Shown piece after piece: positions 98 through 45,521 of a stretch of 64,000 nucleotides of DNA. The stretch's first letter is position 1; each line of letters begins with the position of its first letter. The translations under genes and the position numbers were made by a program. The stretch comes from an uncultured Nitrososphaerota archaeon (GTDB taxonomy: Archaea; Thermoproteota; Nitrososphaeria; Nitrososphaerales; CADDZS01): positions 1,984,001-2,048,000 of the forward strand of contig CAWCYI010000004.1 in the NCBI GenBank assembly GCA_963799845.1, written 5' to 3'. The notes under the pieces were generated by a model that searched no databases, had not been told where the DNA came from, and was given only the letters and a program-made list of their open reading frames with translations.

Positions 98-122
98 TGT
101 CGTACAATCTGGCATTTTACTT
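98..122 (+). promoter_or_regulatory. TGTCGTACA upstream motif plus GCATTTTACTT
   Basis: Motif ends 34 bp before the ATG at 140; near-identical block at 45499-45521. Confidence 0.6.
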
Positions 123-139
123 ACGTGAAGCTCGGTTAA

Positions 140-3100
140 ATGAGACTTAGCAAGCAAAATAAGCACGAGCAAAATCGGCGCAGGCTGATCATCGGACTAC
201 TCGGCGCACTTTTCGCGCTGTCGATCCTTTCCTCGCTCAGTTCACTGGCCATTCAGAACGCTCTACCTTCGAGCGTTCAAAGCGTTCCTTCATCTGCACC
301 GAACCGAAATTTCCTTTCGGACATTACATCATCAGTGTCAAATTTTCTAAGTGGAGCTGGGAAATCTATTGGGCAATTTATCGTAGCCAATTTCCCTCAT
401 GCGAAGAATGTTTTCGCGAGTGGACCAACTTATGACTATTCAATGGATCAGGCGTGTGTAGCGTCGGGGTGTACTGGTTACACTGGTTCGAGTGCGTTTC
501 CGACGGTTACGGCAGGCGATACCATAATTGTAACTGCTGATAGTGTTTCGAGTGCAATCAGTTCTTGCACGATTTCAGATAGCAGTTCAAGATTAACCTG
601 GACGAGTCTAGGGATTTTACTATCAGCTCCGTACGGCGGGAACGGCGGCGGGGATTGGACGTGGGTGGGCGTTGCTACCTCGACTGGTTCAACAACTGTG
701 AACGTGGCGAATTGCGTCGGCGGCAGCATAATACAATACATCGGTGAGCAATTTACTGGATTAGGCGCATACTCCACTGACCATACGGCCGAGAACTCGG
801 GTTCACCCGTATCTGTTGGTTCGTTCACGCCGACGACAGGGCAGACGGTATATGCCTTTGGCACTTTTTACAATGTTAAAGGTGCGACAGTAGCATCAAC
901 GGGCGGCGCAGTTTATTCAAACATCATCAATGGCATATCTGGATATGCGTCAAATCCTTCATCTGGATCTTGTGCTGGAATCTGTCAAGAAGTTGGAGAC
1001 ATGTATGGTCAGACTACGAGTGCTACTACTGCTAGTATGAGTTGCACGGGTGCAACAGGCGGAGACGAATCTGGCGGCGTATGTAGTCTTGGGGCAGAGC
1101 TTGTTTTAGTCTTTAACGCACCCACAATCATTCAGCCAATCCAATGCACGATGCAATCAGGATCGCAGCATCAGGCGACAATAACAATCTCAGGCGGCTC
1201 GCCATCTCCGTCGCCCTCGACCGTTTTATGCGATGGATCATCTCACAACGTTGCTGTTCAGGGCAGCATCACTCTAACAGCAACCGAGCCTGCTGATGGG
1301 ACGTGTGGAACATCATGCCGAGATCGATTCAGCGTTTCAAGTGCAGCAAGTACCACGATAACTGTTACATCATCAACATCAACTTGGTCCATCACTAATT
1401 ATGAACAATTAAGCAACACGTACCAGGTTACTGCGGAAGCTCAGACGGATTTTGACGCGAGCATGTCTTGGACGGTTACTGGAACGTTTCTCGGAGTTGT
1501 GGGTACCACAATTTGTACGATCTCATCCACGGTTGCGACGACCGATTCTTGCGCGGGTTACGCCGATTCTGATGTGGCAGTTACGATCCCTCAAGCCGCT
1601 ACTAGCCCACCTACAAATACAAGATGGCAATCGAGCGCGGCGTGTTCATCGACCGTAACAACGGGCGGGAACAGCGAGAACTGCAATTCGTATAAGCAAC
1701 TGGATAACACTTACCAAGCTTCCACGAATGGTCAGGGTCCGCCAACTTGGGATTCTGGATTAAGCGCAGTAGTTACAGGATCTCTTTATGGATCCACGGG
1801 TCAGAGCATTTGCACTATCAATCCATCATCGGGAACGACTACTACTGCCTCGTGTACTGGTTATGATGACTACGGTGCTGCCGCTACCGAACCCTCTACG
1901 ATGAGTGGAGCTGGATCAAATATCCAATGGAAGATCTATGGAACTGCATCCTGGACTGATACAAGTCCAAGTACTCACACTGGCACGTACTACAAGCAGC
2001 TTCGAAACACGTACCAAGTAACCGCCGAGGCGCAATCAACTTTCGATACCTCGATGAGCTGGACAGTTACAGGAACAGTCGGGGGTACCGGATCTTCAAC
2101 AGTCTGCACAATTTCATCAACCGCCGCTGCAACCGATTCGTGTTCTGGATATGCTGACTACGATCTAGGCGTTACCATTCCGCAGGCCGCGAGCTCACCG
2201 CCCGCGAGTACTCGCTGGCAATCTTCTGCTGCGTGTACATTTACGCAGACCTCTGGGGGAAATACAAACAACTGCAACTCGTACAAACAACTGACCAATA
2301 CGTATCAGGCTTCCACGAATGGGCAGGGTCCGCCAACCTGGGATAGCGGCCTCTCGGCAACTGTAACGGGATCGCTCTATGGAAATACTGGTCAAACGAT
2401 CTGCACCATAAGCCCCAGCTCAGGAACCACCACGACCGCGACATGCTCGAGTTATGCCGATTACGATGCTGCGGTTTCCGAGCCTTCAACGATGAGTGGC
2501 GCGGGATTCAATATTCAATGGAAGATCTATGGAACGTCGAGCTGGACAGACACCACGGGCGGCAACACCCATACGGGTACTTACTACAAACAGCTCTCGA
2601 ACACCTATCAGGAAACTGCGATCACACCGACGACCTTCGATACCAGTATGTCTTGGGCGGTAACTGGAACGGTCGGCGGCGTTGGATCTTCCGGAGTTTG
2701 CACGATTTCTTCGACCGCTGCAACCACAGACAGTTGTACGGCTTATGCTGATTACGATCTAGGCGTTACGATTCCTCAAGCGGCTTCATCTCCGCCTTCC
2801 GGTACACGTTGGCAATCTAGTGCCGCGTGTACTTTCACTCAAACCACAGGTGGGAATACTAACAACTGCAATTCGTACAAGCAGCTCGATAACACTTATG
2901 ACGCTTCTACAAATGGACAGGGGCCGCCAACTTGGGATTCGGGCCTTAGTGCTGCGGTAACTGGCTCGCTCTATGGTGTTACAGGTCAGACGATCTGTAC
3001 GATTAGCCCGAGCTCGGGTACTACCACTACGGCTACATGCTCGGGTTATGCGGACTACGACGGGGCAATTTCAGAACCTTCGACTATGGCGGGAGCTGCC

Positions 3101-6100
3101 AGCGGGATCCAGTGGGCGATCACTGGTACTGCATCTTGGACAGATACAACAGCCAGTAACACTCACACGGGAACGTACTACAAACAACTAGACAATACCT
3201 ACGATGCCGTTCCAAATCGGAGAACTACCTTTGATGGAATTTATTCAATCAGCGTCTCTGGTACGATCTTCGGAGTTGGTTCTTCATCAGTCTGCACAAT
3301 CACTACGTCGAACGGCGGGGGAACCGCGTCTTGCAGCGGATATGCAGACTACGATCTTGCGGTTACAGTTGGAACGATCTCGGGTGCGCCTGCATCTACA
3401 CGCTGGACGATAGTTGGCACTTCAACCTTCACAGATACGACCGGATCAAACACCCATTCAGTTGAGTACTACAACGAGATCGATAACACTTACCAGGTTA
3501 CAGCCGAGGCGCAAACTGATTTCGACGCGAGCATGTCTTGGACTGTAACTGGAACGTTGGGCGGTTCATCGGGTTCGACTATCTGCACGATCACGTCCAC
3601 TGTCGCAGCAACAGATTCCTGTTCAGGGTACGCAGATTACGACCAGCCTGTAATTATTCCGCAGGCCGCGTCTAGTCCACCAGCCAATTCAAGATGGCAA
3701 TCGACGGCGGCGTGTACCTCGACCTTAACCACGCCTAGCAACACGGAGAACTGCAACTCGTACAAGCAGTGGACGAACACTTACGAAATGGCGGTCGCGG
3801 GTTCCGTGAGTGGCTTCACTGTTGGCAGCGGCAGTGGAGAATCAATGGTAGTACTCGGCTACCTCTATGGATCCTCTGGACAAACGATCTGCACGGCAAC
3901 GGCTTCAAGTGGTGCGAGCGCGACCTGCTCTGGATATTCTGACAACGCCGAAGCTGCTACACTGCCCCAATTTCTGACAGGCGAGGCAGCAAGTACTCAA
4001 TGGCAGGACAGCAACGGCGGATCGCAATCATCGGGATCGATAACCTCTGGGGCGAACACTATCACGGCTGAGTACTATCTTCAACTCTCGAACACCTATC
4101 AAGCCTCGACAAATGGACAGGGGCCGCCAGATTGGGATTCCGGCCTTAGTGCTACCGCGACAGGAACCTTACTCGGGGTAGCGAGTCAAACCATCTGCAC
4201 GATCTCTCCGAGCTCAGGAACGACGACGACCGCTGGATGCACAGGATACGCGGATTATGATCAGCCAGTTTCCGAGCCAGCTACGATGAGTGGAGCTGGA
4301 TCCAATATCCAATGGAAGCTCTATGGAACGTCGAGTTGGACTGACACCACAGCGGGAAATACTCACACAGGCACATATTACAAGCAGCTTCAAAATACGT
4401 ACCAAGTTTCTTCTCACGCCCAAACCGATTTTGATAATGGCCTCTCGTGGTCTATAACTGGTACGATCGGCGGGGTCGGGAGCTCATCGGTCTGCTCGAT
4501 CTCATCGACCGTTGCCGCAACTGATTCTTGCTCGGGCTATGCTGATTACGATCTCGGGGTAACTATCCCTCAAGGGGCCTCGGGAGCTGCCGCGAATACA
4601 CGTTGGCAATCAACAGCAGCCTGCACTTTCACCCAGACAACAGGTGGGAATACGAACAACTGCAATTCGTACAAGCAACTCACCAATGCTTATGCCGCAA
4701 ATCCCGTTGCCCCAACTACATTTTCAGCGAGTATCACCTTCGCGGTTACAGGATCGCTCTATGGAGTAACTGGACAAGCGATCTGCACCGTATCGGTTCC
4801 AGGCTCTCCGTCCTCGGGTAGCTACAACTGCGCGGGATATGCTGACTATGACGCTGCGGGTTCAATCGCGTCGGCGGCCTCGGGTTCCCCTACAAATCAG
4901 AGATGGGAAGTTTCTGGAACGGATTCGTGGACCGACACCACTGGCGCAAACACGCACACCGCGAATTACTATCTGCAAGACTCGACCACGGTTTCTTACT
5001 CAATCATTGGTGGCGCGGGAGCTTCCTCTGCCCCAACTCTGACGTACACATATCTCGGTACAGCTGGCACTACCTATTCGATGACTGTAACGCCAACAGT
5101 AGTTTGGCAGGACAATGGAAAGACATGGACCGCGACGAATCCTCTGCCTGGATCGGGAGCTAGCGAAAGATGGGATGCCCCCACCGGCTATTCAGGCTCG
5201 TCCACTGCTGGCGAAACTATTGACCCGACGTACTACAATCAATTTGATGTTACAGTTACGATCACTTCGATTGATGGTTCCATTCCTGGGCCGAGCGATC
5301 CCACTTTCAGTTACTCGCAATTCGGCAGCCCAGCTACCCTGACAGTAGCGACCTCGCAGACAACTTGGGCAGATGATTCTCAGGCATGGAGTATCACAAA
5401 TCCAATTTCAATTTCCAGCACGGAAAGATTCGATTCGCCATCGACGACCAGCGGCACGATCAGCGCGGCCTCGACCTTCCCCATCACGTACTACCATCAG
5501 TACAAGCAGGGATTTGAGTACAGCGTCGTCGGTATCAGTACCGGATCATCTCCGCCAACTTTCAAATTCTTCTACGAGGGAACGGTGAACAGCACCACGC
5601 TTTCAACGTCGCCAGCTCAACTCTGGCTCGACGCAAACCCCGCAGTTTGGAATTCCACGAATCCGCTGACGGGTTCAAATTCAACCGTGAGTTGGATGAC
5701 GGGAACGCCGACTGGCTCTACGTCAAGCGGTGGAGGAACAACGAACATTGTCTACGATCTAGCCTATGCGGTCATCACACTGTTCAATCCCGACTCGCTG
5801 ACCATCCAGTTCACAAACTCGACAGGTAGCTACACTAGTACGACTTCGCCCCTGAACATCTCGCCTGGCTCTACTTTCACGGTCGTTGGATCCAATTTCA
5901 ACGGCCTCTTTGAAATATCCACTAACGGCTCAACGATCTATCAGGTACCAGCAGGCTTCGGAAATGGAATCCAAGTCTTAAGCTCGGTCAGACTAAATCT
6001 TTTCAATTTCACGGCGGGAGGCACAAATCCATTCTTGAACATGACTGGAACGAGCGCAACGGTGATCGTACTAGATCCAGTTCCAGCAACAGGACTTTCG

Positions 6101-6775
6101 TACGTCTCGACCACGGTAGCGGGATCCTCTTACTCGCCGACTTTCTCACAGAGCAAAACGGTCATTCAGGTTACAACGACAGGAACACAAAATATTCTGA
6201 TGAATTTTGTCGTCGCGGGCCCAGAGACACAAACGCAATGCGTCGGTCCAAGCTGCGGCGGCGGAAGCACTACCGTAACTGCAACGGGAGAGGCTGGCGG
6301 CACAAGTACACTCATCCAGAATGGACAGGTGAGTGTAGAAGCTGGAAGCCCATCGAACCGAACGATCTCGCTGGTTTTGGACAACACCCAATCATCCGCG
6401 ATTACGGAACTGACCCAGCTCAGTTTCTCTAGCATGAGCAATGTTCAGGTGGTCTACAATCCGAGCGAGCTACCGATCAATGTTGGCAGTGGCGATACGG
6501 GTAGTGTTCCAGTCCAAGTACAATACAGCAGCCTAACTCCTGGTTCTTACGTCATCAACGGAACGGCGACCTTCACCCAGTACAGCAGCCAGACCAATTC
6601 GTACGTAACTCTGCACAGCGGATTCACGATCACGCTGTTCGTTCAGGCCCTAACTGGAAAGAGTGATGGATTCAATTTCGCGGCATTTCTAACAGCCTAT
6701 TGGTGGGTTTTCATCAGCGCGGCAATCCTCGCGGTAATTGGTATTGGTTTATTCATTAGAAAGACTGGACGTTAG
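140..6775 (+). CDS. Giant repeat-rich cell/virion surface protein (adhesin- or fibre-like), 2211 aa
   Basis: N-terminal basic+hydrophobic signal/TM; about 12 Cys-containing ~100-aa repeats (types YQVTAEAQTDFD... and YQASTNGQGPPTWD...); C-terminal TM plus RKTGR tail. Confidence 0.9.
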   Translation: MRLSKQNKHEQNRRRLIIGLLGALFALSILSSLSSLAIQNALPSSVQSVPSSAPNRNFLSDITSSVSNFLSGAGKSIGQFIVANFPHAKNVFASGPTYDYSMDQACVASGCTGYTGSSAFPTVTAGDTIIVTADSVSSAISSCTISDSSSRLTWTSLGILLSAPYGGNGGGDWTWVGVATSTGSTTVNVANCVGGSIIQYIGEQFTGLGAYSTDHTAENSGSPVSVGSFTPTTGQTVYAFGTFYNVKGATVASTGGAVYSNIINGISGYASNPSSGSCAGICQEVGDMYGQTTSATTASMSCTGATGGDESGGVCSLGAELVLVFNAPTIIQPIQCTMQSGSQHQATITISGGSPSPSPSTVLCDGSSHNVAVQGSITLTATEPADGTCGTSCRDRFSVSSAASTTITVTSSTSTWSITNYEQLSNTYQVTAEAQTDFDASMSWTVTGTFLGVVGTTICTISSTVATTDSCAGYADSDVAVTIPQAATSPPTNTRWQSSAACSSTVTTGGNSENCNSYKQLDNTYQASTNGQGPPTWDSGLSAVVTGSLYGSTGQSICTINPSSGTTTTASCTGYDDYGAAATEPSTMSGAGSNIQWKIYGTASWTDTSPSTHTGTYYKQLRNTYQVTAEAQSTFDTSMSWTVTGTVGGTGSSTVCTISSTAAATDSCSGYADYDLGVTIPQAASSPPASTRWQSSAACTFTQTSGGNTNNCNSYKQLTNTYQASTNGQGPPTWDSGLSATVTGSLYGNTGQTICTISPSSGTTTTATCSSYADYDAAVSEPSTMSGAGFNIQWKIYGTSSWTDTTGGNTHTGTYYKQLSNTYQETAITPTTFDTSMSWAVTGTVGGVGSSGVCTISSTAATTDSCTAYADYDLGVTIPQAASSPPSGTRWQSSAACTFTQTTGGNTNNCNSYKQLDNTYDASTNGQGPPTWDSGLSAAVTGSLYGVTGQTICTISPSSGTTTTATCSGYADYDGAISEPSTMAGAASGIQWAITGTASWTDTTASNTHTGTYYKQLDNTYDAVPNRRTTFDGIYSISVSGTIFGVGSSSVCTITTSNGGGTASCSGYADYDLAVTVGTISGAPASTRWTIVGTSTFTDTTGSNTHSVEYYNEIDNTYQVTAEAQTDFDASMSWTVTGTLGGSSGSTICTITSTVAATDSCSGYADYDQPVIIPQAASSPPANSRWQSTAACTSTLTTPSNTENCNSYKQWTNTYEMAVAGSVSGFTVGSGSGESMVVLGYLYGSSGQTICTATASSGASATCSGYSDNAEAATLPQFLTGEAASTQWQDSNGGSQSSGSITSGANTITAEYYLQLSNTYQASTNGQGPPDWDSGLSATATGTLLGVASQTICTISPSSGTTTTAGCTGYADYDQPVSEPATMSGAGSNIQWKLYGTSSWTDTTAGNTHTGTYYKQLQNTYQVSSHAQTDFDNGLSWSITGTIGGVGSSSVCSISSTVAATDSCSGYADYDLGVTIPQGASGAAANTRWQSTAACTFTQTTGGNTNNCNSYKQLTNAYAANPVAPTTFSASITFAVTGSLYGVTGQAICTVSVPGSPSSGSYNCAGYADYDAAGSIASAASGSPTNQRWEVSGTDSWTDTTGANTHTANYYLQDSTTVSYSIIGGAGASSAPTLTYTYLGTAGTTYSMTVTPTVVWQDNGKTWTATNPLPGSGASERWDAPTGYSGSSTAGETIDPTYYNQFDVTVTITSIDGSIPGPSDPTFSYSQFGSPATLTVATSQTTWADDSQAWSITNPISISSTERFDSPSTTSGTISAASTFPITYYHQYKQGFEYSVVGISTGSSPPTFKFFYEGTVNSTTLSTSPAQLWLDANPAVWNSTNPLTGSNSTVSWMTGTPTGSTSSGGGTTNIVYDLAYAVITLFNPDSLTIQFTNSTGSYTSTTSPLNISPGSTFTVVGSNFNGLFEISTNGSTIYQVPAGFGNGIQVLSSVRLNLFNFTAGGTNPFLNMTGTSATVIVLDPVPATGLSYVSTTVAGSSYSPTFSQSKTVIQVTTTGTQNILMNFVVAGPETQTQCVGPSCGGGSTTVTATGEAGGTSTLIQNGQVSVEAGSPSNRTISLVLDNTQSSAITELTQLSFSSMSNVQVVYNPSELPINVGSGDTGSVPVQVQYSSLTPGSYVINGTATFTQYSSQTNSYVTLHSGFTITLFVQALTGKSDGFNFAAFLTAYWWVFISAAILAVIGIGLFIRKTGR

Positions 6776-7006
6776 ATCACAGAATCTTCGGGATATTTTT
6801 GCCTCGTCTGCGAAATTCGATTTAGGCCGTCTGCTTTCCCCGAGGCGCAAAAGAAAGGACTGATGCCCTGCTATTTCACTGTCCATAGATGCTCTCACAG
6901 TGCCGTCCTGGATAACTTCCGCTCTGAGAAAAATACTGTCTGGGCCGCGTCTCGTTGCCCTGCCTGCAAGTTTGACTGGCTCTCCAATAAACATCTCACC
7001 AGGAGC

Positions 7007-20013: not shown

Positions 20014-20022
20014 TGTCGGACA
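20014..20022. promoter_or_regulatory. TGTCGGACA variant of the upstream motif
   Basis: Lies between divergent starts at 19992 and 20051. Confidence 0.5.
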
Positions 20023-21145: not shown

Positions 21146-21146
21146 G

Positions 21147-22025: not shown

Positions 22026-22052
22026 GCCGAAATACCGCCAATTTGAGCGCGG

Positions 22053-22067
22053 ATTTGTCGTACAAAT
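22053..22067. promoter_or_regulatory. Extended palindromic motif ATTTGT-CGT-ACAAAT
   Basis: Core TGTCGTACA at 22056-22064 ends 35 bp before the ATG at 22099. Confidence 0.6.
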
Positions 22068-22098
22068 TCAGAGATTTGCTTTGTTTTCTGACGGTCAG

Positions 22099-23247: not shown

Positions 23248-23298
23248 AATCTTGTGAGGATTACAGGGCGTAACAAATCAATCCCACTAACGAAATAA

Positions 23299-23342
23299 TC
23301 TGCGCCCACAGCGCAGACCCCCTTCTTTTTTCTTTTTATTTT
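23299..23342 (+). terminator. Hairpin TCTGCGC-N5-GCGCAGA plus long T-tract
   Basis: 7-bp perfect stem followed by TTCTTTTTTCTTTTTATTTT downstream of 23247. Confidence 0.7.
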
Positions 23343-23355
23343 GAGCTGAAATTCT

Positions 23356-26452: not shown

Positions 26453-26453
26453 C

Positions 26454-26945
26454 TTGCACCGCCGAGCCCGCTTCTTCGTTGCGACCCTAGTTACTTTGGT
26501 ACTGCTAACTCTCGTCGCGGTCTTGCTGCCGATTTCAAAAGCTCAGGCGGCGCAAGAGTACTCGCAGCTCCAGACCCAACTCGCCAATCCCACCCTTCTC
26601 TCGATCTTCATCAACAACTTTGGGATCGCAATCATCGGGTTCTTGCCTTTCGTCGGGGCGATCTACGAAGGGTTCGTGCTGTTCAATACGGGCCTCGCGG
26701 TCGCAGCCATCGGAACGACGAAAGGAGTTCCGGCCACGTATCTTCTAGCTGTCTCAATGACCACGCCTTTCTTCTGGATGGAGTACGTCTCTTACAGCAT
26801 CGCGATCAGCGCGGCAGCTTTCCTGATTGTGTCGATTCAGCAACGCCGCTTCCGAATGGAATTCAAATACTTCCTCTTGCAGATCGCCCTCGTCGCGGGG
26901 CTGCTCTTGGCGGCTGTCTTCATCGAAATAGCCTATGTGGCCTGA
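26454..26945 (+). CDS. Stage II sporulation protein M-like membrane protein
   Basis: IFINN...LPFVG...FNTG...PFFWMEYVSY...AVFIE pattern. Confidence 0.65.
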   Translation: MHRRARFFVATLVTLVLLTLVAVLLPISKAQAAQEYSQLQTQLANPTLLSIFINNFGIAIIGFLPFVGAIYEGFVLFNTGLAVAAIGTTKGVPATYLLAVSMTTPFFWMEYVSYSIAISAAAFLIVSIQQRRFRMEFKYFLLQIALVAGLLLAAVFIEIAYVA

Positions 26946-26964
26946 GAAATCGCCTTTTTGGAAT

Positions 26965-27105
26965 ATGGGATACATCAGAGACAGGCTGGATGCAATCGAC
27001 AAGAAACATGCCCACCGTTTCACCAGGAAGAACGCTGTCATCATAACATCGATCCTGATAGCAGTAGTAGTGGTTCTGGAAATCATCGTCGTACAGATCC
27101 ACTAA
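26965..27105 (+). CDS. Small single-TM protein (46 aa)
   Basis: MGYIRDRLDAIDKKHAHRFTRKNAVIITSILIAVVVVLEIIVVQIH*; fills the gap, below the ORF-track cutoff. Confidence 0.6.
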   Translation: MGYIRDRLDAIDKKHAHRFTRKNAVIITSILIAVVVVLEIIVVQIH

Positions 27106-27121
27106 ATCTTCTTTTTCTTGC

Positions 27122-28559
27122 ATGAACGCCTCGAAAGTTCTGGCGATTCTCTTTGTGGTCCTTATCGCCAGCGGATTCCTAGTCTACTTTTTCACGCCGA
27201 TCTCATCTGCGGCTACGAATATTTGGTGCTTCCCGCAGAATCCATTAGCGAGTTGCAGTACAAGCTCTTCCTCGGGAACGACTACCATCTCGACTAGTAC
27301 GCAGCAAACTACCCAAACTGGAACGACCGTTTCCAGTTCAAACAATGCCATTAGTTTGAGTGTTGGGAACAGGAATCCCCAGATCTCAATCGGCGGCAGC
27401 AGCAACGATCCCTTCACAGTTACGACTAGAATACCGTTGAACATCACGGCCATCGCGCCCTCGGGATTTGTGGTTACTCCTAGTCCAAAGGCGATCTCTA
27501 CAAGTTCGCCAACAACGGTTGGCTCGGTTTCGATCTATGTGCCTAACTCGATCACGTATGGGAATTATGTAGTAACTTTAGAGGCGGTTTCAGGTCCGAT
27601 CACAATCGTTACTCAGACGATCACGGTTACAGCTACAACGCCAACTCCTATCGAGACGCAGTATTACTACGGGGTCGTTTCGCAGTTCAGTTTGAACATC
27701 ACCAGGGCTTTCGTCGGCGAGGATGGAAAGCTGACAGGAAGCGTGAGATTGGATGAGCTATTCGGCGCGGGCGGCGGTGGCGGCAGCGTAACCACGAATT
27801 CCAATGGACAGGTTTCAAACAGCGGAATTTATCCTGCAATTCCCACGGTCGGTTTTACAAAGTACTGGGTTACAATTACCTCGACGGCTGCACCAACAGC
27901 ACCTAGTACGTCGTACTTTCTCGCGAGCTTTGAAGTGTTCGGTACCCTCAACAATCCGAATGAGATCGCGAATACTGCTGGCTCGACAGTCTACACCGCG
28001 AATGGGTGGGGAATCTATCTCTACTCTCAGCAAATTCCTCTCTCGGGTGGGAGCTTTTCCGTGCAGTTCAATAACACTGCTCTAATTGATGGAGAGTTCA
28101 ACGCACAGGCCGATTTGCTTGGTCAAGCACAGATACCAGGAAATATGGCAAACATACTGACAGCGTATCGGGATCCCAGTGAGTGAAGGTCAGGGCTATG
28201 CGGGGGTCATCAGTACCGTTCAGATCAACGACTATCGCAACGTGCTGGACAATATCGAGACAGTGAACGATATTTTGCAAATTCCTTCGACACCAAATCC
28301 GCTTAATCCCGCCTTGTCCACTTCGACCACTAGCACGGTAACAAGCGTCTGTCTCGGGGACAGGCCCCAAGTCTGCTCGCTTTCGCTGCTGCAAAATGGA
28401 TTCGCGTTGAATCTCGCGGGAAGTGCCTCGGGCGGCCCTGGCATAACTTCGTTCTGGACCGTTGCGACAGGAACTCTGTGGCTTGTTGGGGGAGCTGGGA
28501 TGATCGGCGTTCTGGTCTACTCGCTGCGCGGACGCAAACAAGGAAAATGGCACTATTGA
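27122..28559 (+). CDS. Membrane-anchored surface protein (split by a 1-bp insertion at ~28165)
   Basis: Removing G in AGC(G)T gives ...ILTAIGIPVSEGQGY, joining ORFs 27122 and 28179; TM at both ends. Confidence 0.75.
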
Positions 28560-37381: not shown

Positions 37382-37628
37382 ACTTCGCTTTCATCCTCTT
37401 GATTTCTGCCTCGATTGCATCAGAATTTTCTCGCAGCCGTTTCCTGAGTTTCCTCGATTTGTACCCCGCGAGGCTGAGACAAAGTAAGCTCAACCCTTCG
37501 CACATCAACGCCTGATTGTGATTCACCTGTCGGACTTTAGGATCGCTGCTCTGGCGAAAGACTCTCGCCAAAAGCTCAAACTGTTTCGATTGCCGCTTGA
37601 ATTCAAGCTTGTCTTGTTTGCTGACCAT
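37371..37628 (-). CDS. Small basic hypothetical protein
   Basis: Overlapping operon gene. Confidence 0.65.
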   Translation of the reverse strand: MVSKQDKLEFKRQSKQFELLARVFRQSSDPKVRQVNHNQALMCEGLSLLCLSLAGYKSRKLRKRLRENSDAIEAEIKRMKAKYEF

Positions 37629-38070: not shown

Positions 38071-38264
38071 TCCAGATCACCGATTGCTGCCAGAATCTCT
38101 TGCGCCTCGCCCGAGAGTTTGTGGATCTTTTCCAGATTTTCTCTGCCTATCTCGGGATGTCGATCTAGTAGAACCTGGGCGATGATCCCGACCATAGATT
38201 GAGACTTGATCATTTCCTTCACCAGCTCCGAGACTGACTTCTCTCGAATGGGTACTGCGCTCAT
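38055..38264 (-). CDS. Small hypothetical protein
   Basis: ATGA-type overlap with the ATPase stop. Confidence 0.6.
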   Translation of the reverse strand: MSAVPIREKSVSELVKEMIKSQSMVGIIAQVLLDRHPEIGRENLEKIHKLSGEAQEILAAIGDLDWHTK

Positions 38265-41200
38265 ATTCCTCTGACCTCTGGATTGAGTTGGTATTTTCCG
38301 TTGACCTTCACGATGAGTCCAATGGTCGTGAGATTAGAGAGTGCGTTCTTGAATCCGCCCGATACCTGGTAGCCAGTAGCTTCCGCAATTTCCTCTCTAC
38401 TGAACCCCTGATCAGGGTTCCTCAGAAGATACTCGTAGATTTTCTGTGGCTGTCCGCCGCCAAGATGTTTGAGCCATTCTTCCAACGCATCTACGCTCGG
38501 TTCTCTGTACTCATCTCCGAGAATTGCGATTATCTCGTTCAAGCGGTCCTCATTGACCGAGAAGCGATTTCCCCTCTGCAAAATGTAGCCCGCTGTTTTC
38601 AGCTTGCTCAAAGAATTCTTGAAGCCGCCTGATGTTGCGCTGTAAATTGTCATCGCCCCGATCTGTTCTCGCGAGAAATCTTTTCCAGGTCGTAATGCGA
38701 GCCACGCTAGGATCTTCCGTTCTGCTTTTCCGAGTTTAGATTCCTCACTGTCCAGTTCATCACTTTGAACAGGCATGGCTTGAACCACAGAGCGAGGCGT
38801 TATGACAGGTTTTGGTGCTTGTATTGGAATCGTTGCCCTAGTTGGAATCGTCTGAGCTTTGACCACTGGCTCAAATGGGATCACCTGCGGAATTTCGGGA
38901 ATCTCGGTCGCGAGAAACCTGTCCGCTTGATCTTTGATCGCAGCACCCTGTTTTCCGATGTTATCTCCGAAGGAACTAACCTGTCTCATAACATCCTTAG
39001 CTTTGAGGAACGCAGTCTGGATCGACTTGAAGCCAGCATTGAATTTCTCGATCATCGCGTTCTGACCTCTCGCGAAATATTCCTCTTGGATCGCCTTAAC
39101 TTTCTCAGGACTCATCGGAGCTTCAAACTGCTGCTGCGCGACCTTCGTTTCCAGATTCTTGTTTTTCATCGTGAGGCTCTGAATTGTGTTCAGGTGTTCG
39201 CGATCTCTAGTACGCAGCTCTCTCAACTCGTCGAGTTTTTTCCTCTTGACCTCGGGGATCTCCTGGAAAGCTTCGAGCTGGGGTTTCACGGCTTCGGGTG
39301 TCGGCGGCGGAATGTAGACCTGACCCGCTTCTTCGGCCTCGGGGTGATGCGTTTGGACCTGACCGACCTTCACCATTCGCAATCCTGAACTGAATATACC
39401 GCCAGAGGCGTAGAAGTACCCTGGCTCAATATTTCTTAATCCCTGCGTCTGCTCTTTGCCCTCTTTCCCGCTGCTAAATCCCAGAATGTCTGCGGCGCGA
39501 TCCTGATCTACATCGGCGTTGGTATTTCCGATCATGTAATTCTTGAGCTCGGCCACCACGTCTTTGCTAAGTTTCGCGAGTCGCTGCGTTGCAAGTACAA
39601 TCGCAAAGCCTCGCTTCCTTCCTTTGCTCGCCAGATCGCGCAGAGCTTGAAGCGAGCTGTCCTCTGGCGATTCCGAGGACGAACCCCTTCTGTGTCCCGA
39701 CTCGGCAGCATAATCGTGGGCTTCATCTATCCAGATCAGGGCCGGATGCCATAATTCCCTCGGGGCATTGACAAGCTGCTCGACAAATCTCGCAACGTAG
39801 ATCTGTCGCTCGGTAACTTTCAATTCGGAAATATCTACAATTAGAGAAGCTTTGGTCCGTAGAGCAGTTAGGGCGAGTGCGTCAGCGGTATTGGGATCCG
39901 CCTCAATGTCTCCCATTAACTTTCCGTCGTCATCGCGCTCGGCGGTCGCGAGGACAAAACCGAATTTCTCTCTGAGACTGGAAAACTCTCCCTCGGGATC
40001 GATTATGATCTGCTGGACGTATCCGAAGAAGAGCTCCATCAGCATCCGCATTAACCAAGAATTGTGTACAAAGATTCCATTTGCGTAGAAGTTTTCGTTG
40101 TCCTCAACTGTCAGGTCGTACACGAAATCTGTCGTCGATGGGAGTTTTTCCACTTCTGTAATTTCATCCCAGTACACGTCCGAATAGGCAAGCCGTTTGA
40201 TGCTGCTCAGTTGCAACTCCTCGACTATGTTTTGTAGTCGCCTTCGTCCTATTACTCCTGTTTGAACAGCCCCATCGATAGAACCGATTGGAGTCCACAC
40301 TGGATTGCCCTTAACATATCGCCCCCGTGAATCGAGCTCTTGCTTTGCATCTTGATACAATTTTGGAGTTGCTGGAATTACGTCGAGAGAATCATACTGC
40401 CAGGGTGAATCTTCGTGGAGAAGTTTCATTCTCCCGCCGATAGTTTCTAGGAATCTGTCGTATGATTCGCCCGAGAACGCTGCTCTATGGTATGGTGTGC
40501 CTCCGACAATCTTGGGTTTTAGATTCAATCGAGCTACGATGCCAAAGCGAAGCAGTAGAACAGCAATATCGGGTTTCAATTTTTGGCTCTTGGTAACATA
40601 TTCGATTGAATGGTGCTTCTTGCCTCTTGGATAGCCGTCGCCGTCAAAGTATCCCTGTAACAGACCCACACAGAATTCATCAGGCGCGTTAAGTACCCAA
40701 TTCGGTATTTTCTTGTTGCTAGATCCCGAACCGAATTGCTCGCTGATCCAATTTGCGAAAGAAATGCCAAAGATTGCAGCCTGACCGTTTCGCCCTGTTG
40801 AGTGAAAGCCGAGACTTTCACCAAAAGTTTTGACGCGATCTAATGTTTCCTGATTATTCTGAGTAACGTACGTTCCCCCGTGATGGACATGCCCTTCTGC
40901 CAGGTAGATGCCACAGAAGTAACCGAATTCGAGATCGAGCTGTAACTTTCTTTGTAAAATCTGGTGAGTGGCAAAATGTCCCTTCTGCGTCCACAAGTCG
41001 GCATTAATCTCTCTAATTGGCTCAGATGAAGGTAGAGATCTGGGAAGTGGAAAACACATTCCCTTTGACAGCTCACTTCCTTTGATCGCCACCCAATCAT
41101 TTTCTCTGAATACGAGAAAGCTATGATCATCTGTTCCAGTTACGACCCGACCCGATCTGGTGTGGACTCGGACGAGATTGTTAGGCGATTTGTGTTTTTG

Positions 41201-41545
41201 TACGGCGAGAACTCGTTTCCACTCTACCTTCAATTCATGGCTGAGCGAAAGCGTCTTGATCTCTGAATGGCGTGGATAAATCTCCGAGGCGAAAGCTTCC
41301 ATAGTAGTTAGGCGAATCTCTCCGTCGATGTTCAATAGAAGCTCGCTGTCGCCTGTTACGGACTTACCACCGCCACTTGAGGCTTCGATGATCATGCGAG
41401 TCTTGATCAGTTTGGGAAGGTCGATGGTCGCCTTTCCGTCCTCTTTGTAGTGCTGCTTTCCCTTCGAGTCAGTCTCGGTCTGTTCGACCCAGGTACCGAA
41501 ATCGAAGTACTGTTTGGATCGCTGCGATGTTTTCTGTGCGCTCAA
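38261..41545 (-). CDS. HerA/FtsK-superfamily (DUF87-like) ATPase with intein, coiled coil and two C-terminal wHTH domains
   Basis: Spliced Walker A ASSGGGKS; IIDPEGEF; Walker B WIDEAH; GRKRG; ATQR. Confidence 0.88.
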   Translation of the reverse strand: MSAQKTSQRSKQYFDFGTWVEQTETDSKGKQHYKEDGKATIDLPKLIKTRMIIEASSGGGKSVTGDSELLLNIDGEIRLTTMEAFASEIYPRHSEIKTLSLSHELKVEWKRVLAVQKHKSPNNLVRVHTRSGRVVTGTDDHSFLVFRENDWVAIKGSELSKGMCFPLPRSLPSSEPIREINADLWTQKGHFATHQILQRKLQLDLEFGYFCGIYLAEGHVHHGGTYVTQNNQETLDRVKTFGESLGFHSTGRNGQAAIFGISFANWISEQFGSGSSNKKIPNWVLNAPDEFCVGLLQGYFDGDGYPRGKKHHSIEYVTKSQKLKPDIAVLLLRFGIVARLNLKPKIVGGTPYHRAAFSGESYDRFLETIGGRMKLLHEDSPWQYDSLDVIPATPKLYQDAKQELDSRGRYVKGNPVWTPIGSIDGAVQTGVIGRRRLQNIVEELQLSSIKRLAYSDVYWDEITEVEKLPSTTDFVYDLTVEDNENFYANGIFVHNSWLMRMLMELFFGYVQQIIIDPEGEFSSLREKFGFVLATAERDDDGKLMGDIEADPNTADALALTALRTKASLIVDISELKVTERQIYVARFVEQLVNAPRELWHPALIWIDEAHDYAAESGHRRGSSSESPEDSSLQALRDLASKGRKRGFAIVLATQRLAKLSKDVVAELKNYMIGNTNADVDQDRAADILGFSSGKEGKEQTQGLRNIEPGYFYASGGIFSSGLRMVKVGQVQTHHPEAEEAGQVYIPPPTPEAVKPQLEAFQEIPEVKRKKLDELRELRTRDREHLNTIQSLTMKNKNLETKVAQQQFEAPMSPEKVKAIQEEYFARGQNAMIEKFNAGFKSIQTAFLKAKDVMRQVSSFGDNIGKQGAAIKDQADRFLATEIPEIPQVIPFEPVVKAQTIPTRATIPIQAPKPVITPRSVVQAMPVQSDELDSEESKLGKAERKILAWLALRPGKDFSREQIGAMTIYSATSGGFKNSLSKLKTAGYILQRGNRFSVNEDRLNEIIAILGDEYREPSVDALEEWLKHLGGGQPQKIYEYLLRNPDQGFSREEIAEATGYQVSGGFKNALSNLTTIGLIVKVNGKYQLNPEVRGI
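40061..41362 (-). mobile_element. Intein (434 aa) with LAGLIDADG homing endonuclease; Ser at position 1
   Basis: SVTGD...; block B TDDHSF; GIYLAEG and GYFDGDG; VYDLTV...FVHN|S. Confidence 0.92.
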
Positions 41546-41667
41546 GAGGTCTGCACCCTATTCTTTTCAATGTCGATCTTCTTGCCGCAATCAGGACAGG
41601 TCGCTCGGGTGGTGTTACTGCCCCCGTAATTCCACTCGTGGCCGCAGTTTGGACAGCGTAGCTCCAT
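41542..41667 (-). CDS. Small Zn-ribbon protein (CPNC...CPDC)
   Basis: MELRCPNCGHEWNYGG...ATCPDCGKK; type common in archaeal viruses and plasmids. Confidence 0.75.
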   Translation of the reverse strand: MELRCPNCGHEWNYGGSNTTRATCPDCGKKIDIEKNRVQTS

Positions 41668-41723
41668 TCGACTACTACAACTACGACTACGAACCATGCT
41701 TTCCCTTATAACGTAAGGCAGGG

Positions 41724-41732
41724 TGTCGTACA
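41724..41732 (+). promoter_or_regulatory. TGTCGTACA motif
   Basis: Ends 34 bp before the ATG at 41766. Confidence 0.6.
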
Positions 41733-41765
41733 TTTCCCCAAATTCTGTTTTAGATTCAGAGACTT

Positions 41766-42155
41766 ATGGAAAAGTCCTCAAAGCGAGTCATAGGTGTCGT
41801 CGGCATCGCACTACTCCTGGCGTTAGCTTTCCTGTTCCTCAACATCTGGGGGCTTCTGCTCATTGCGATAGGCGCAGTGTTCGGAGCTAGGAAGTGGGGA
41901 TACAAAGGATCAGCACTTTCAACGTTGGTCCTATTCATCATAGGATTCGGCATCTTCGCCCTAAGTGTCGCCATCACATCGCTCGCTGCAACGCCTTTAC
42001 TGGCATGGTTCTCCGTGAGTGGAGTGTTCCTGAATTGGTTCCACGCGGCGGTCGCTGTACTGCTCGTGCTGGTACTGACCTTCGGGATCGTTCTCAGCTT
42101 CAGATTCAACTATGTCGGCTATTGGTTCGGCAAACAATACTTGAAAGCAATGTAA
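41766..42155 (+). CDS. Small multi-pass membrane protein
   Basis: Four hydrophobic segments. Confidence 0.7.
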   Translation: MEKSSKRVIGVVGIALLLALAFLFLNIWGLLLIAIGAVFGARKWGYKGSALSTLVLFIIGFGIFALSVAITSLAATPLLAWFSVSGVFLNWFHAAVAVLLVLVLTFGIVLSFRFNYVGYWFGKQYLKAM

Positions 42156-42198: not shown

Positions 42199-45100
42199 CT
42201 ACCATTTTGCTACAACGGCATCATTGCCCTTAGTGTCGAGTGCGAATTCTTTCTCGACCTGTTCCTTCGCCACTTCGCCAACGTCAGCTTCCCGCCAAAC
42301 CCCAGGATTTTTCACGATGAGTTTTTCCAGAGGCGTATTGGTCCGCTTGCAGTAGATTGTGTAGATGGCCTCGTTTTCTTTAGAGACGATCTGCGGCATG
42401 AAAGGTGGGGGCATCGGTTGGATCAAATTGATTTCGTGGTTCAGCCGATTGTACCAGAACATCAGGTGCTTCGCTTGCTTCCTCTGGAAAATCTTGCTCA
42501 TCGTCATCTGCCTGACGATTTCTTTGTCCTCGTCGTCCGCAGCGAAAGTTGCCAGAAGATTTTCCAGCGGAGATTCAGAGTCCGTGCGATCACTCGTGAG
42601 GCCGCGCCAGAAAGTATTCGCAGCCAGCCGCCTGACCTGTGGGGAAATTTCGCGGGTTAGCTGGGTCGCAACGTCCATCGCCATCCCGAAACGCCTCGCA
42701 GACCTGACACCTTTCTCGATCTGATTTCTCATCTGGACGTTCTCGCGCATCGAGGGATTGTTAGTACCTGCATCCGCAGCCTCGTCCAGAATGGATCGCA
42801 TAGGCAACTGCGTATGCTTCATCTTCCATGCGAGGGCAGAGTACCAGACGTTGATCGCGTTCCGCAGCTCCATATCTACGGGTTTGTGGGTCTTGTCATC
42901 TGTCCACTGCCGCCCGAGGTTTCGGACCGCTATGATCCCCGCTGCCCTGTCGTAACCAAACTCGGGCCCTTCCGCGATAGCTTTCAACTCGTTCAAACAA
43001 TCGGGAATATCAATCGCGAAATTTTCGTACTTCTCGACTTTGATTATCCGGTCATACTTGGTCATCACTTCACCATTCAGCACGTCCAGATTGTCTACAA
43101 TGTTCAGGATCAAGACGGGAACGCCCTGTGGCGGTATCTCGACTTCCTCGGCGCAGAATTTGTACGAGATGTTGCCAGGCATATTCATGTACGGCATGAA
43201 GGCCAGTGTCGGCCAGTTCGACGTTTCAGAAAGCGGGATCAGTACCGGGGCTTTGTGTTCGATAACAGTCTGGGCTGCGAGACGCGAAAGAATCGTAGAT
43301 TTTCCTGAATTGTGAACGATGAGTCCACAGCTCAGGACGTCACTGTTTGTTCCTGGTACATGTAAGTCAAAAGTGTCGGCCTCACCAACTCTTTCAATGG
43401 AGAGGATAGTAGCACTTGCGAGATTCTTGCAGGTCCAGCTCGAATATCCGTCTCGGTAAGTGTTATCGGATAGAGTCCAGCCATTCGCAAAAGTATCAAA
43501 CGTTCCTCGTCCCGTTGTGAATCCTGATGCCAGCGATCCCCATTCGCTTCGATTACGAAAATGGAATTCTTGATCCGAGATTCTGGAAATAAGAATCTGC
43601 CCGCTACGTGTACGCACTTGTTCCAATCCCATTCCAAGTTCATCATGTCGAGGACACGCGATACGTCGCGATGACGGCAACCGATATTTCGGCAAATGAT
43701 AGTGATCCTCTTTTTGGGAGTCAGTTTCTCCCGAATAGTTCTGGCGCAAGTTCGGCTGCAAAAACGGCGTTTGCTTGCGACGGGCTGGAAGGTTCCCTTT
43801 AGACAGTCGGGGTTCTCGCATTTCTTTGGTGGCGCGCGCGCGCATACGAGTTTCTTTGCCAAAGGCGGCTATTCGATCTCCAACATTCAGATTTTCAAGT
43901 GTCTGCCATTGCCCACCCAACTGCAAGAATTTGTGATCTGCGGTCGCGAGGACGATGCCGCTGCTTGTGGTCAGGCGATAAAGCATTTGTCGCTTGTTTT
44001 GAATTGGGATTGCTGATCTGAAAGCAAAGCTACCGTCTCTTTCCAGGGAGAGAACTTTCAGATCCTTTTGCCCCATAACGTCAGCAATTCTCCGTGGACC
44101 CGAGATTGTCTCGATTTGTGTCTCTGCGGACAAGCATCCGGGGTCGCCCGCGAAAAACGAGACTACTGCATATTGAGGACTAGGCATGTAGCGAAAATCG
44201 TAATCAAAGTACGCCTGAACAGTTCCAGTGAGTTCTCCGCTTCGCCAGAAATCTTGATCGATTGTCTGGAAAATAGCGTCGCCTCGGAAGCCGTCCTGAA
44301 TCCGTTGCTTCGATTCATCCGTATCTCCGACCTTATCCCAGATAATTTGCAGAGGTTCGGAGTATTCCACTTCTGCCCTAAACTTGTTGATCAGCGGCCC
44401 CTCGGTTAGAGCCATCATCTCTCCGAAAACTTGGTGGATCTGTTCCCACTCCGCGCCGAACTGAACTTTGTGATACTCTTTCAGCCAGCCGATACACTGC
44501 ACGTTGCTGGCTACTCGAAACAGATCCTGAATGTTGAAGTACCGCTTTGATCCGCCAATTTTGTCAATCGGTGTTTTCAAATCCAGCCCATTGTAAGCCG
44601 CGTAAATCATCAGTTGCAAGATCGCTTTCTCGTCGATGCTCGTGTTTTGCTCTCCGCGAATTGTCTCGAAGTGGAGATCTGAAAGGTAGCGTCGGTACTC
44701 CAAGTTGGAAATCTGAAAATGCTTCCAGCCGTAAGCCTCGTTCACGTCATCCATCAATGTAATGAGTGTCATGTATGCAGCAGCGTAAGCTTTCTCCATC
44801 GCCTCGTACGCGTACCATCCAGCCACGATAGCAGCGTCAGGTTCCACGCCCCTCATTGCAAACATTTCCTCAATTCTCGCGTAATCGTTCACGATTGCGT
44901 TTTCCAGCCTTTCGTACAAATCCTCGATGTTCAGGTTGAGGTCTGCGTAGTCGCTGGTCGCGATCCCCCGCCACGCCCTAGCGTTCCTATCTGAGACTTG
45001 CATCATGCGGTACTCGATGATCGTTTCGAGCTCTCGGGCATCCCGCTTTCTGCGGTTCTTCAAGTCGATTACTTGCAGCATGGTATTGTAGACACCGAGC

Positions 45101-45387
45101 GCGGCGTACATTTTCTCGCGCCATCCGAGAAAGGTCGCTAGACGCTTTTCGTGAACTTGAGCTCGGAAGGCAAATCGATTGAACTGCTCCAGTCCGTTGA
45201 ACCCGGCCATAATGCCCTTAATCTGCATCAAGAGGCCATATCGCTGATCGGCAATGCTGGTCGGATCAGCCTCCATCCTTTCCTGCGCGGCTTTTTGATC
45301 ATCCTCGAACTTCTGCGCCTCGTTCTGGAAAGTTTTCGCTACATTTTGCGGTGCGTATTCGTTGGAAACGCCAGAATCTTGAGCCAA
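42199..45387 (-). CDS. Large FtsK/HerA-like P-loop ATPase (packaging/secretion-type candidate) with intein
   Basis: Spliced Walker A GDPGSGKS; Walker B ILDEA; ARRFG; VATQ; long helical N-terminus. Confidence 0.8.
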   Translation of the reverse strand: MAQDSGVSNEYAPQNVAKTFQNEAQKFEDDQKAAQERMEADPTSIADQRYGLLMQIKGIMAGFNGLEQFNRFAFRAQVHEKRLATFLGWREKMYAALGVYNTMLQVIDLKNRRKRDARELETIIEYRMMQVSDRNARAWRGIATSDYADLNLNIEDLYERLENAIVNDYARIEEMFAMRGVEPDAAIVAGWYAYEAMEKAYAAAYMTLITLMDDVNEAYGWKHFQISNLEYRRYLSDLHFETIRGEQNTSIDEKAILQLMIYAAYNGLDLKTPIDKIGGSKRYFNIQDLFRVASNVQCIGWLKEYHKVQFGAEWEQIHQVFGEMMALTEGPLINKFRAEVEYSEPLQIIWDKVGDTDESKQRIQDGFRGDAIFQTIDQDFWRSGELTGTVQAYFDYDFRYMPSPQYAVVSFFAGDPGCLSAETQIETISGPRRIADVMGQKDLKVLSLERDGSFAFRSAIPIQNKRQMLYRLTTSSGIVLATADHKFLQLGGQWQTLENLNVGDRIAAFGKETRMRARATKEMREPRLSKGNLPARRKQTPFLQPNLRQNYSGETDSQKEDHYHLPKYRLPSSRRIACPRHDELGMGLEQVRTRSGQILISRISDQEFHFRNRSEWGSLASGFTTGRGTFDTFANGWTLSDNTYRDGYSSWTCKNLASATILSIERVGEADTFDLHVPGTNSDVLSCGLIVHNSGKSTILSRLAAQTVIEHKAPVLIPLSETSNWPTLAFMPYMNMPGNISYKFCAEEVEIPPQGVPVLILNIVDNLDVLNGEVMTKYDRIIKVEKYENFAIDIPDCLNELKAIAEGPEFGYDRAAGIIAVRNLGRQWTDDKTHKPVDMELRNAINVWYSALAWKMKHTQLPMRSILDEAADAGTNNPSMRENVQMRNQIEKGVRSARRFGMAMDVATQLTREISPQVRRLAANTFWRGLTSDRTDSESPLENLLATFAADDEDKEIVRQMTMSKIFQRKQAKHLMFWYNRLNHEINLIQPMPPPFMPQIVSKENEAIYTIYCKRTNTPLEKLIVKNPGVWREADVGEVAKEQVEKEFALDTKGNDAVVAKW
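43309..44136 (-). mobile_element. Intein (276 aa) inside Walker A
   Basis: CLSAET...; block B ATADHKF; TFDLHV...IVHN|S. Confidence 0.9.
43332..43862 (-). CDS. Zn-finger + DUF559/Vsr-like endonuclease in the +1 frame inside the intein
   Basis: CENPDC...RRFCSRTC; VIEANGDRWH; RDEERLILLRMAG...LTETDI. Confidence 0.65.
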   Translation of the reverse strand: MAKKLVCARAPPKKCENPDCLKGTFQPVASKRRFCSRTCARTIREKLTPKKRITIICRNIGCRHRDVSRVLDMMNLEWDWNKCVHVAGRFLFPESRIKNSIFVIEANGDRWHQDSQRDEERLILLRMAGLYPITLTETDIRAGPARISQVLLSSPLKELVRPTLLTYMYQEQTVTS

Positions 45388-45481
45388 AAGTCGTCCTCAG
45401 CACAAAAAGGTAGTAGAAATGTTGGGCGGATGCTCTCCCCGGATCACCATCGAGGAAGCTACGGCGGCGTAACTGCAATCC

Positions 45482-45521
45482 TAGCGCGCGCGCTAAAGTG
45501 TCGTACATTTGCATTTTACTT
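45482..45521 (+). promoter_or_regulatory. Perfect 14-bp palindrome TAGCGCGCGCGCTA + TGTCGTACA + GCATTTTACTT
   Basis: Between divergent starts at 45387 and 45525. Confidence 0.6.

Follow-up and report, generated by a model that had tools for sequence, protein, structure and literature searches.

What could coordinate the genes of a large genomic island in which almost no gene belongs to a known family? We addressed this question in an uncultured Nitrososphaerota archaeon (GenBank assembly GCA_963799845.1; 4.6 Mb in nine contigs), within a 64,000-nt stretch of contig CAWCYI010000004.1 (C4:1984001-2048000, hereafter the window). An initial annotation of this DNA had proposed that the word TGTCG(T/G)ACA, usually at the position of the transcription factor B recognition element (BRE), marks a dedicated late/structural regulon. 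We find that the nine-letter word TGTCGTACA and its close variants TGTCGGACA and CGTCGTACA stand before about eight genes of this conjugative-element-like island, in every case facing the gene, and that most of the downstream products are predicted surface or membrane proteins. The word is probably the switch by which the island turns its surface-protein genes on together.

The exact word TGTCGTACA occurs six times in the window: at the five plus-strand positions already listed by the initial annotation (98, 22056, 24190, 41724, and 45499) and at a sixth, on the minus strand at 58777, which had been overlooked. The earlier description of two variants, TGTCGGACA (20014) and CGTCGTACA (27087), holds as well. 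Among 100 dinucleotide shuffles the mean was 0.35 copies of TGTCGTACA and the maximum three, with none (0/100) reaching six. Exact copies number 26 genome-wide; 20 of them are found beyond the window (4.54 Mb), where they occur at chance density and are nearly all intragenic, in agreement with the earlier view that the word is specific to the element rather than a general host promoter element (Poisson P ~7e-7 for the window versus the remaining genome). It is also the commonest 9-mer among the 84 upstream zones of the window, a count that one site enters twice via two candidate starts; of 300 shuffled sets of these zones, one reached five copies and none reached six. When island upstream regions are compared with those of the rest of the genome, the top 7-mer is TGTCGTA (5/125 vs 9/3635). 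Three further 9-mers match TGTCGTACA in count enrichment score, but all three are coding repeats. The enriched k-mers CCATAGAGC, CGAGGCGCA, ATAACACTTA, and CTGCAATTC were rejected as second motifs; they are coding repeats that lie mostly within one giant open reading frame (ORF). For what follows the family was scored as TGTCG[GT]ACA (TGTCGKACA). A wider, degenerate family was not detected, as the pattern with one mismatch is found 29 times in the window against 22.9 expected.

Placement, rather than count, is the decisive evidence for the motif. The upstream zone makes up 1.95% of the possible placements and holds six of the seven TGTCG[GT]ACA copies in the window (binomial P 3.8e-10), whereas outside the window only three of 60 copies lie near a start (Fisher P 5.6e-6 versus the window). 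Random placement relative to starts, which the initial annotation had named as the outcome that would sink its proposal, is therefore not what is observed. Eight upstream sites were counted, five with TGTCGTACA, one with TGTCGGACA, and two with CGTCGTACA. They span at most 79 kb, each lies 17-34 nt before a start codon on the same strand, and all eight face their gene, as judged from the asymmetric centre CGT (two-sided P 0.008). The distances given earlier (18-35 bp, three of them 34-35) agree with ours under that counting convention. The flanks of the sites are not conserved, and every site is followed by a T-run that begins -25 to -10 from the start codon.

To locate the word within the promoter, we built a host promoter profile as a histogram of TATA-like hexamers counted from the first ATG; anchoring on the longest ORF instead gave almost no signal. 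Start positions of the host hexamers range over -43 to -28 relative to the ATG and are most frequent at -30, and few fall at -27 to -21; such a profile fits leaderless or short-leader transcripts. The motif begins -43 to -33 from the ATG at the seven sites that have an ATG start, and -26 from the uncertain GTG of site 7; thus, it occupies the BRE/TATA zone. An archaeal BRE adjoins the TATA box on its upstream side, at about -38 to -32 relative to the start of transcription; its consensus is purine/A-rich, and TFB contacts it through the helix-turn-helix in its second cyclin repeat. TGTCGTACA, TGTCGGACA, and CGTCGTACA do not resemble that consensus, and at none of the sites is the motif followed by 8 nt that look like a TATA box. 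The seven window sites all lack a TATA-like hexamer in the interval up to the start codon (7/7), as do seven of the eight sites overall. The placement proposed by the initial annotation is supported insofar as the word is promoter-proximal, faces its gene, and lies in the BRE/TATA zone, and, as stated there, no canonical TATA box is obvious downstream of it.

Positions 19500-39400 were compared with contigs of two peat metatranscriptome runs (X12 and X14) and two DNA runs. Two variant contigs of RNA from X12, with 0 and 22 differences, have their first base at 22098 and 22099, that is, at ATG 22099, and a further RNA contig starts at 32676, 1 nt before ATG 32677. RNA contig ends are weak evidence of a transcription start, and the two instances give a weak hint of leaderless transcripts in this organism. 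If transcription does begin at ATG 22099, the motif of site 3 spans -43 to -35. The gene at 22099-23247 is the only one of 19500-39400 that is clearly covered by contigs of the RNA runs (X12, X14); we did not read stretches without RNA contigs as silent. Among the DNA contigs, a diverged one from run X6 is unaligned over 24083-24189 and exact again from 24190, the first base of site 4, which provides one instance of a conservation boundary at the motif.

A hydrophobic segment opens the product of six of the eight first genes; in several of these there is another at the end, and Ser+Thr make up 27-32%. A basic stretch and a hydrophobic helix follow each of the ATGs at 140, 20051, 22099, 27122, and 41766. 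Most of the products are predicted to be surface or membrane proteins, Ser/Thr-rich with membrane anchors, so that the word "structural" in the original proposal is reasonable. The 84-codon ORF behind the eighth site encodes a very basic protein, and the giant gene behind site 1 has no Pfam family. The sites, the genes behind them, and the candidate regulators discussed below are listed in Table 1.

Table 1. Motif copies, genes behind them, and regulator candidates. Positions are those of the window unless marked C4; distances run from the last motif base to the start codon.
Feature	Position	Strand	Description
Site 1	98..106	+	TGTCGTACA, 33 nt before ATG 140 of giant gene
Site 2	20014..20022	+	variant TGTCGGACA, 28 nt before ATG 20051
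Site 3	22056..22064	+	TGTCGTACA, 34 nt before ATG 22099 (16 nt before TTG 22081)
Site 4	24190..24198	+	TGTCGTACA, 24 nt before ATG 24223
Site 5	27087..27095	+	variant CGTCGTACA, 26 nt before ATG 27122
Site 6	41724..41732	+	TGTCGTACA, 33 nt before ATG 41766
Site 7	45499..45507	+	TGTCGTACA, 17 nt before GTG 45525 (start codon uncertain)
Eighth site	C4:2062819	-	CGTCGTACA, 28 nt before 84-codon ORF, 14.8 kb past the window
Sixth exact copy	58777..58785	-	within coding sequence, no start codon behind
Giant gene	140..6775	+	2211 aa, 32% Ser+Thr, N- and C-terminal hydrophobic segments
Gene run served by sites 2-5	20051..28559	+	24223, 24788, 26454, 27122, and 28179 among members
PKD-domain proteins (two)	20051 and 21147	+	within the run of sites 2-5
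Ser/Thr-rich protein	22099-23247	+	382 aa, behind site 3
129-aa protein	41766..42155	+	five hydrophobic segments, behind site 6
Run of five or six genes	45525..50294	+	behind site 7; hydrophobic segments in most
HerA/FtsK-type ATPase	38261..41545	-	1094 aa; intein with LAGLIDADG domain
Second HerA/FtsK-type ATPase	42199..45387	-	phrog_7035 common to both ATPases
Small zinc-ribbon ORF	41542..41733	-	longest start overlaps site 6
Probable winged-helix protein	50363..50689	-	108 aa, directly downstream of ParB-like gene; candidate motif binder
ParB-like protein	50686..51726	-	ParB_N 28.1 bits (cut-off 26.3); PHROG ParB-like E 1.2e-12
Zinc-ribbon protein	51739..52398	-	219 aa, directly upstream of ParB-like gene
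TFB homologue	C4:1981782-1983221		479 aa, 0.9 kb upstream of site 1; zinc ribbon and both cyclin repeats

Several sites have features of their own. Sites 1 and 7 have GCATTTTACTT in common, and site 3 lies inside a 15-bp palindrome around CGT (ATTTGTCGTACAAAT, 22053-22067), both as the initial annotation had stated. At site 4, the start at ATG 24223 is supported by coding potential, which moves from frame 3 to frame 1 at ~24190-24235; here an ORF for an Rce1-like CAAX protease (23589-24503, plus strand) stays open 280 nt beyond the start of the next gene (24223-24849, plus strand, in another frame), and coding potential favours the second gene from ~24235; the stretch that is diverged in run X6 (24083-24189) belongs to the tail of the protease ORF. 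Site 6 sits between divergent genes, and 12 nt away is a TTATAA box directed at the minus-strand operon of the zinc-ribbon and ATPase genes; ATG 41667, behind that box, is the more likely start of the zinc-ribbon ORF. Site 7, also in a divergent region, abuts the palindrome TAGCGCGCGCGCTA (45482-45498).

Other copies were set aside. The minus-strand copy at 58777 is probably there by chance. The copies at C4:537225 and C4:1465453, at or within ORF starts, were treated as probable chance matches. A tandem copy, TGTCGTACGTGTCGTACA, is intergenic and lies 83 kb beyond the window (C4:2131594-2131611, minus strand; L006:3594-3611); it was not counted as a promoter site, as the ATG at 34 nt opens 16 codons only. 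The divergent region 57488-57569, between the genes at 57092-57487 (minus strand) and 57570 (plus strand), contains GGTACGTTGTACTA, a relative of the motif with three mismatches (CGTTGTACT) that lies 25 nt before the minus-strand ATG and is followed by CTTTTAG, like site 6 and site-8-like promoters; it too was left uncounted. A KorB-like palindrome, TTTAGC..GCTAAA, was sought in the genome without success.

We favour, with a probability of roughly 0.55, the reading that a regulatory factor binds the motif and thereby controls about eight TATA-less promoters of the island together, probably by activating them. Judged from the DNA, TGTCGTACA would be a directional cis-regulatory element common to these promoters, set just upstream of, or overlapping, the position that BRE and TATA take up in ordinary promoters of the host. 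An island-encoded, sequence-specific DNA-binding protein would bind it, the candidates being the 108-aa winged-helix protein, the ParB-like protein, or a TFB-like protein; the bound factor would recruit host TBP, TFB, and RNA polymerase, and the surface and membrane protein genes, that of the giant 2211-aa product among them, would be switched on together. We infer that activation is more likely than repression. As in an upstream activator site, the same word recurs at several promoters of related genes, is rare elsewhere, and is placed immediately upstream of, or overlapping, the BRE/TATA zone.

A number of observations weigh against this reading. As ~46,000 9-mers were tested, the count enrichment of TGTCGTACA taken alone is borderline after correction. 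The gap to the start codon (24-34 nt, and 17 at site 7) is loose for a fixed activator geometry, and the identity of five sites in all nine letters is more exact than at most factor sites. Two plus-strand operons of the island, at 53999 and 57570, are without the motif. Gene starts were taken from longest-ORF calls and coding potential, with no trained gene finder. Relatives were also hard to find: 13 genomes of the family contained nothing closely related to the element; among 301 sampled genomes of the order, the ATPase query revealed no close relative either, its matches being one 32% identical full-length one (genome G219) and 23 weak partial ones; a 401-genome sample of the order, searched with the ParB-like protein, gave one weak match only; IMG/VR held no relative by two ATPase queries; and metagenomes yielded two short 95% identical contigs, neither covering any site. 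Homologues of the winged-helix and TFB-like proteins, 74-85% identical, are encoded on metagenome contigs as long as 8.6 kb. The 40-kb neighbourhood of the match in G219 has no other gene in common with the island and no repeated upstream word. A pattern scan of IMG/VR with the motif and GCATTTTAC returned two single matches in coding-like context, which we took as chance.

Which protein might read the word? A row of three minus-strand genes, coding for the 219-aa zinc-ribbon protein, the ParB-like protein, and the 108-aa protein, has its own TTATAT box (read by eye). The initial annotation had called the first of these TFB-like. In favour of that name, its CSGCGA ribbon stretch resembles a TFB homologue (pairwise E 8e-4), its language-model neighbours include TFIIB-bearing clusters at 0.86-0.89 (below 0.9), and it stands in the published order of TFIIB and ParB genes; against it, sequence searches of Pfam and PDB gave no match, and thus no cyclin repeat was seen. 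The structure model is unusable (mean predicted local distance difference test [pLDDT] 42.8). We therefore regard the 219-aa protein as a candidate TFIIB-like factor of weak homology. The winged-helix assignment of the 108-aa protein, made earlier from the sequence, is weakly supported: its AlphaFold2 model has a pLDDT of 61.6, and the Foldseek matches at ranks 1-50 (duplicate chains omitted) are all MarR-family or other winged-helix regulators, the best at E 3.4e-3 and none at or below 0.001. The zinc ribbon of the third protein named by the initial annotation, at 41542, stands, through Pfam matches below threshold.

Another TFB homologue lies just outside the window. The genome has at least eight TFB genes, and the divergent, full-length 479-aa protein encoded upstream of site 1 can be aligned, over both cyclin repeats, with the Pyrococcus TFB core (residues 22-189 of 1AIS chain B; E 2.8e-8). 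Its BRE-reading helix is ETIRRHSKN, where four host TFB copies have VTEVTIRNRYK and two more have one-residue variants. It also has a C-terminal extension of ~190 aa with a second zinc ribbon, and it is encoded beside a fusion of ParB_N with an N6/N4 DNA methylase and a second methylase (C4:1977992-1983221; L001:13992-19221), which makes a second association of TFB and ParB domains besides the one in the window.

The main rival reading of the same sites is one in which the motif is itself a non-canonical core promoter, with TGTCG as BRE and TACA plus A/T-rich bases as TATA, read by an island TFB paralogue much as a phage sigma factor redirects bacterial polymerase. Besides the changed recognition helix of the 479-aa protein and the second zinc-ribbon protein in the TFIIB position of the TFIIB-ParB pair, it would account for the coincidence of the motif range with that of the host TATA hexamers, for the lack of a TATA after the motif, and for the strict orientation and 9-bp length, which suit an asymmetric core element; TFB paralogues with promoter sets of their own are reported for other archaea in the excerpts of the literature drawn on here. 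However, if transcripts start at the ATG, the motif at -43 to -35 is upstream of the expected BRE, and neither its sequence, unlike the purine-rich BRE consensus, nor the 8 nt behind it, which are not TATA-like, looks the part. Given the variable gap, sites 4 and 5 would have their start within the ORF under a fixed geometry, and the 219-aa protein offers neither a cyclin repeat in the Pfam and PDB sequence searches nor a usable model. On balance, we consider a core-promoter role possible but unlikely. The same tentative standing applies to a more general form of the idea, that the TFIIB homologues of thaumarchaeal conjugative elements may be element-specific initiation factors with TGTCGTACA as their promoter word. 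Either the 479-aa TFB would read the word directly, instead of a BRE/TATA, or the zinc-ribbon TFB-like protein would be tethered to it by the ParB-like and winged-helix proteins and would itself recruit RNA polymerase, with no need of TBP-TATA recognition.

A repressor operator that silences transfer and surface genes until induction, on the model of KorB of IncP plasmids or the 9-bp aCcr1 box of Sulfolobales, is quite improbable. It would give a role to the ParB-like gene in the regulator row, and to the spacing at site 6, where the divergent ATPase operon has its TTATAA box 12 nt downstream of the motif, so that one bound protein could affect both directions; small palindrome-like 9-bp repressor boxes are moreover documented in archaea and their viruses, in the portion of PMC9976878 used here. 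However, the motif lies upstream of the zone described for such boxes, promoters with no recognisable TATA box are a better fit to activator dependence, a symmetric dimer does not require the strictly kept orientation, and the gene behind site 3 is covered by RNA contigs of both X12 and X14. Position, strict orientation, and unrelated flanks lower the likelihood of this alternative, as they do of the one that follows. A non-regulatory origin, as a parS-like partition or recombination site or a duplicated promoter remnant, possibly plus chance matches, is very improbable, for although a ParB-like protein is encoded nearby, GCATTTTACTT at sites 1 and 7 could mark a common origin, five exact copies would suit an enzyme target or recent copying, and the genome-wide count enrichment is borderline after multiple testing, centromere and recombination sites are placed regardless of promoters and need no fixed direction, whereas here 8/8 are oriented and lie 17-34 nt before a start; flanks that beyond sites 1 and 7 have only loose T-runs in common are not copies of one segment; and the placement P of 3.8e-10 excludes chance.

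If the motif is an activator site, which genes does it tie together, and do they form one element? The initial annotation had assigned the giant gene to the same element as the block at 17.7-64 kb. Co-regulation of the two is supported, because they have the motif, GCATTTTACTT, and product architecture in common. A single contiguous element is not, as 7000-17650, between them, is host-type DNA with multi-copy gene families, part of which has an 88% identical paralogous copy at C4:505980-515033. The genes of this stretch include those for MFS, nitronate monooxygenase, TPR/AAA, and pterin dehydratase proteins; the TPR/AAA ones are members of a family that is multi-copy both here and in related genomes. 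The giant ORF (140-6775) contains several diverged internal coding repeats, with the words CTGCAATTCGTA...ATAACACTTA at ~1681, 2866, and 4660.

The family-poor island itself continues far past the window on both sides and reaches the contig end. In C4:2048001-2138642 (L002-L006, the last ~90 kb of the contig), a Pfam match at E <=1e-5 was obtained for 8 of the 76 ORFs that reach 100 aa; this region also holds an IS110-type transposase split into two ORFs, and GmrSD-N, HNH, and NUDIX genes. No tRNA gene was found in 175 kb (the window plus 110.6 kb of flanks), no integrase family in Pfam scans of 181 ORFs, and no attachment site, border direct repeats not having been searched; general family scans turned up no relaxase-type family. 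Of the two ATPases, the first has an intein at residues ~63-496 (Intein_splicing E 3.2e-22) and the second a shorter insert, residues ~416-693, that is intein-like (30.5 bits, under the 35.8 cut-off). Both have weak HerA/DUF87 matches under the curated cut-offs, and neither was typed as VirB4 or VirD4. The stretch ~28800-36400 has a low GC content (0.40-0.45 vs ~0.50 around it) and looks like an insertion; most of it has little or no depth in runs X3 and X6, and one metagenome contig (L035) has a homologue of 36428-37066 followed, within ~180 nt, by matches to 33627-33788 and 28553-28780. Alternating (GC)5 has 45 overlapping plus-strand matches genome-wide, and the island from C4:1973000 (~3.6% of the genome) has at least 12 of the 25 listed.

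As an activator site, the motif would mark a co-expressed set made up of the giant surface protein, the PKD-domain proteins, and the membrane proteins beside the ATPases, the first functional grouping in this island. A 9-bp word at about eight promoters is also a concrete candidate target for the TFIIB homologue of a conjugative element. If a TFB does read it, the system would be an archaeal counterpart of the sigma-factor switch of phages and plasmids, and the word the first cis target for this class of mobile-element TFBs. We found no description of the motif in the paper on thaumarchaeal conjugative elements cited below, or among the 10 listed of 138 papers that contain the literal 9-mer, which concern unrelated subjects.

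How does the word compare with known systems? On the IncP plasmid RK2, the ParB-family repressor KorB acts at operators (O_B) that are a dozen dispersed short palindromic copies near the plasmid's own promoters. The island likewise pairs a ParB-like protein of a conjugative-element-like island with a dispersed short word near its own promoters; however, KorB is bacterial and represses, and its operators are fully palindromic at variable distances, whereas the island sites are asymmetric, oriented, and held to a narrow distance. With BRE/TATA elements read by paralogue-specific TFBs, as described in the excerpts cited for other archaea, the word has in common the core-promoter zone, its directionality, and a divergent TFB with a changed recognition helix, but its sequence is off the BRE consensus, no TATA box adjoins it, and its spacing to the start codon varies by 10 nt. 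The aCcr1 box of Sulfolobales and their viruses is also a 9-bp, partly palindromic word at a small promoter set, and it is the target of a small factor for which mobile elements, too, have genes (PMC9976878); the island word lies upstream of the zone described for that box and is confined to the island's own genes, and no ribbon-helix-helix protein was identified in the island.

Similar in position are the sites of archaeal activators, which typically bind immediately upstream of the BRE; examples are the ara-box of Saccharolobus solfataricus and the EarA sites in the fla promoter of Methanococcus maripaludis (PMC5512572). There, too, a short word immediately upstream of BRE/TATA acts on dependent promoters and drives genes for cell-surface structures, which is what we propose for the island. 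EarA sites are 6 bp long with four at one promoter, whereas the island word is 9 bp and occurs once at each of about eight promoters (with a tandem at C4:2131594), in the setting of a mobile island.

For the element as a whole, the comparison is with the integrative and conjugative elements (ICEs) of Thaumarchaeota. According to the relevant excerpts of Krupovic et al. 2019 (PMC6563490), most of these have a pair of VirB4/TrbE-like and VirD4/TraG-like ATPases, and all have a TFIIB homologue, mostly encoded immediately upstream of a ParB-like gene. That paper never uses the word "promoter", and hence describes no common upstream motif and names no target for the TFIIB homologue. The island differs from these ICEs in the weak TFIIB homology of its 219-aa protein, in ATPases that are not assigned to VirB4 or VirD4, and in that no integrase, attachment site, or tRNA gene was found in the 175 kb. 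Like them, it is large, has a pair of HerA/FtsK-type ATPases amid many membrane proteins, and carries a zinc-ribbon TFB-like gene immediately upstream of a ParB-like gene on the same strand; the family scans, moreover, gave no relaxase-type family. Short of proven membership, a thaumarchaeal ICE is thus the closest known kind of element, because the window has the published gene order.

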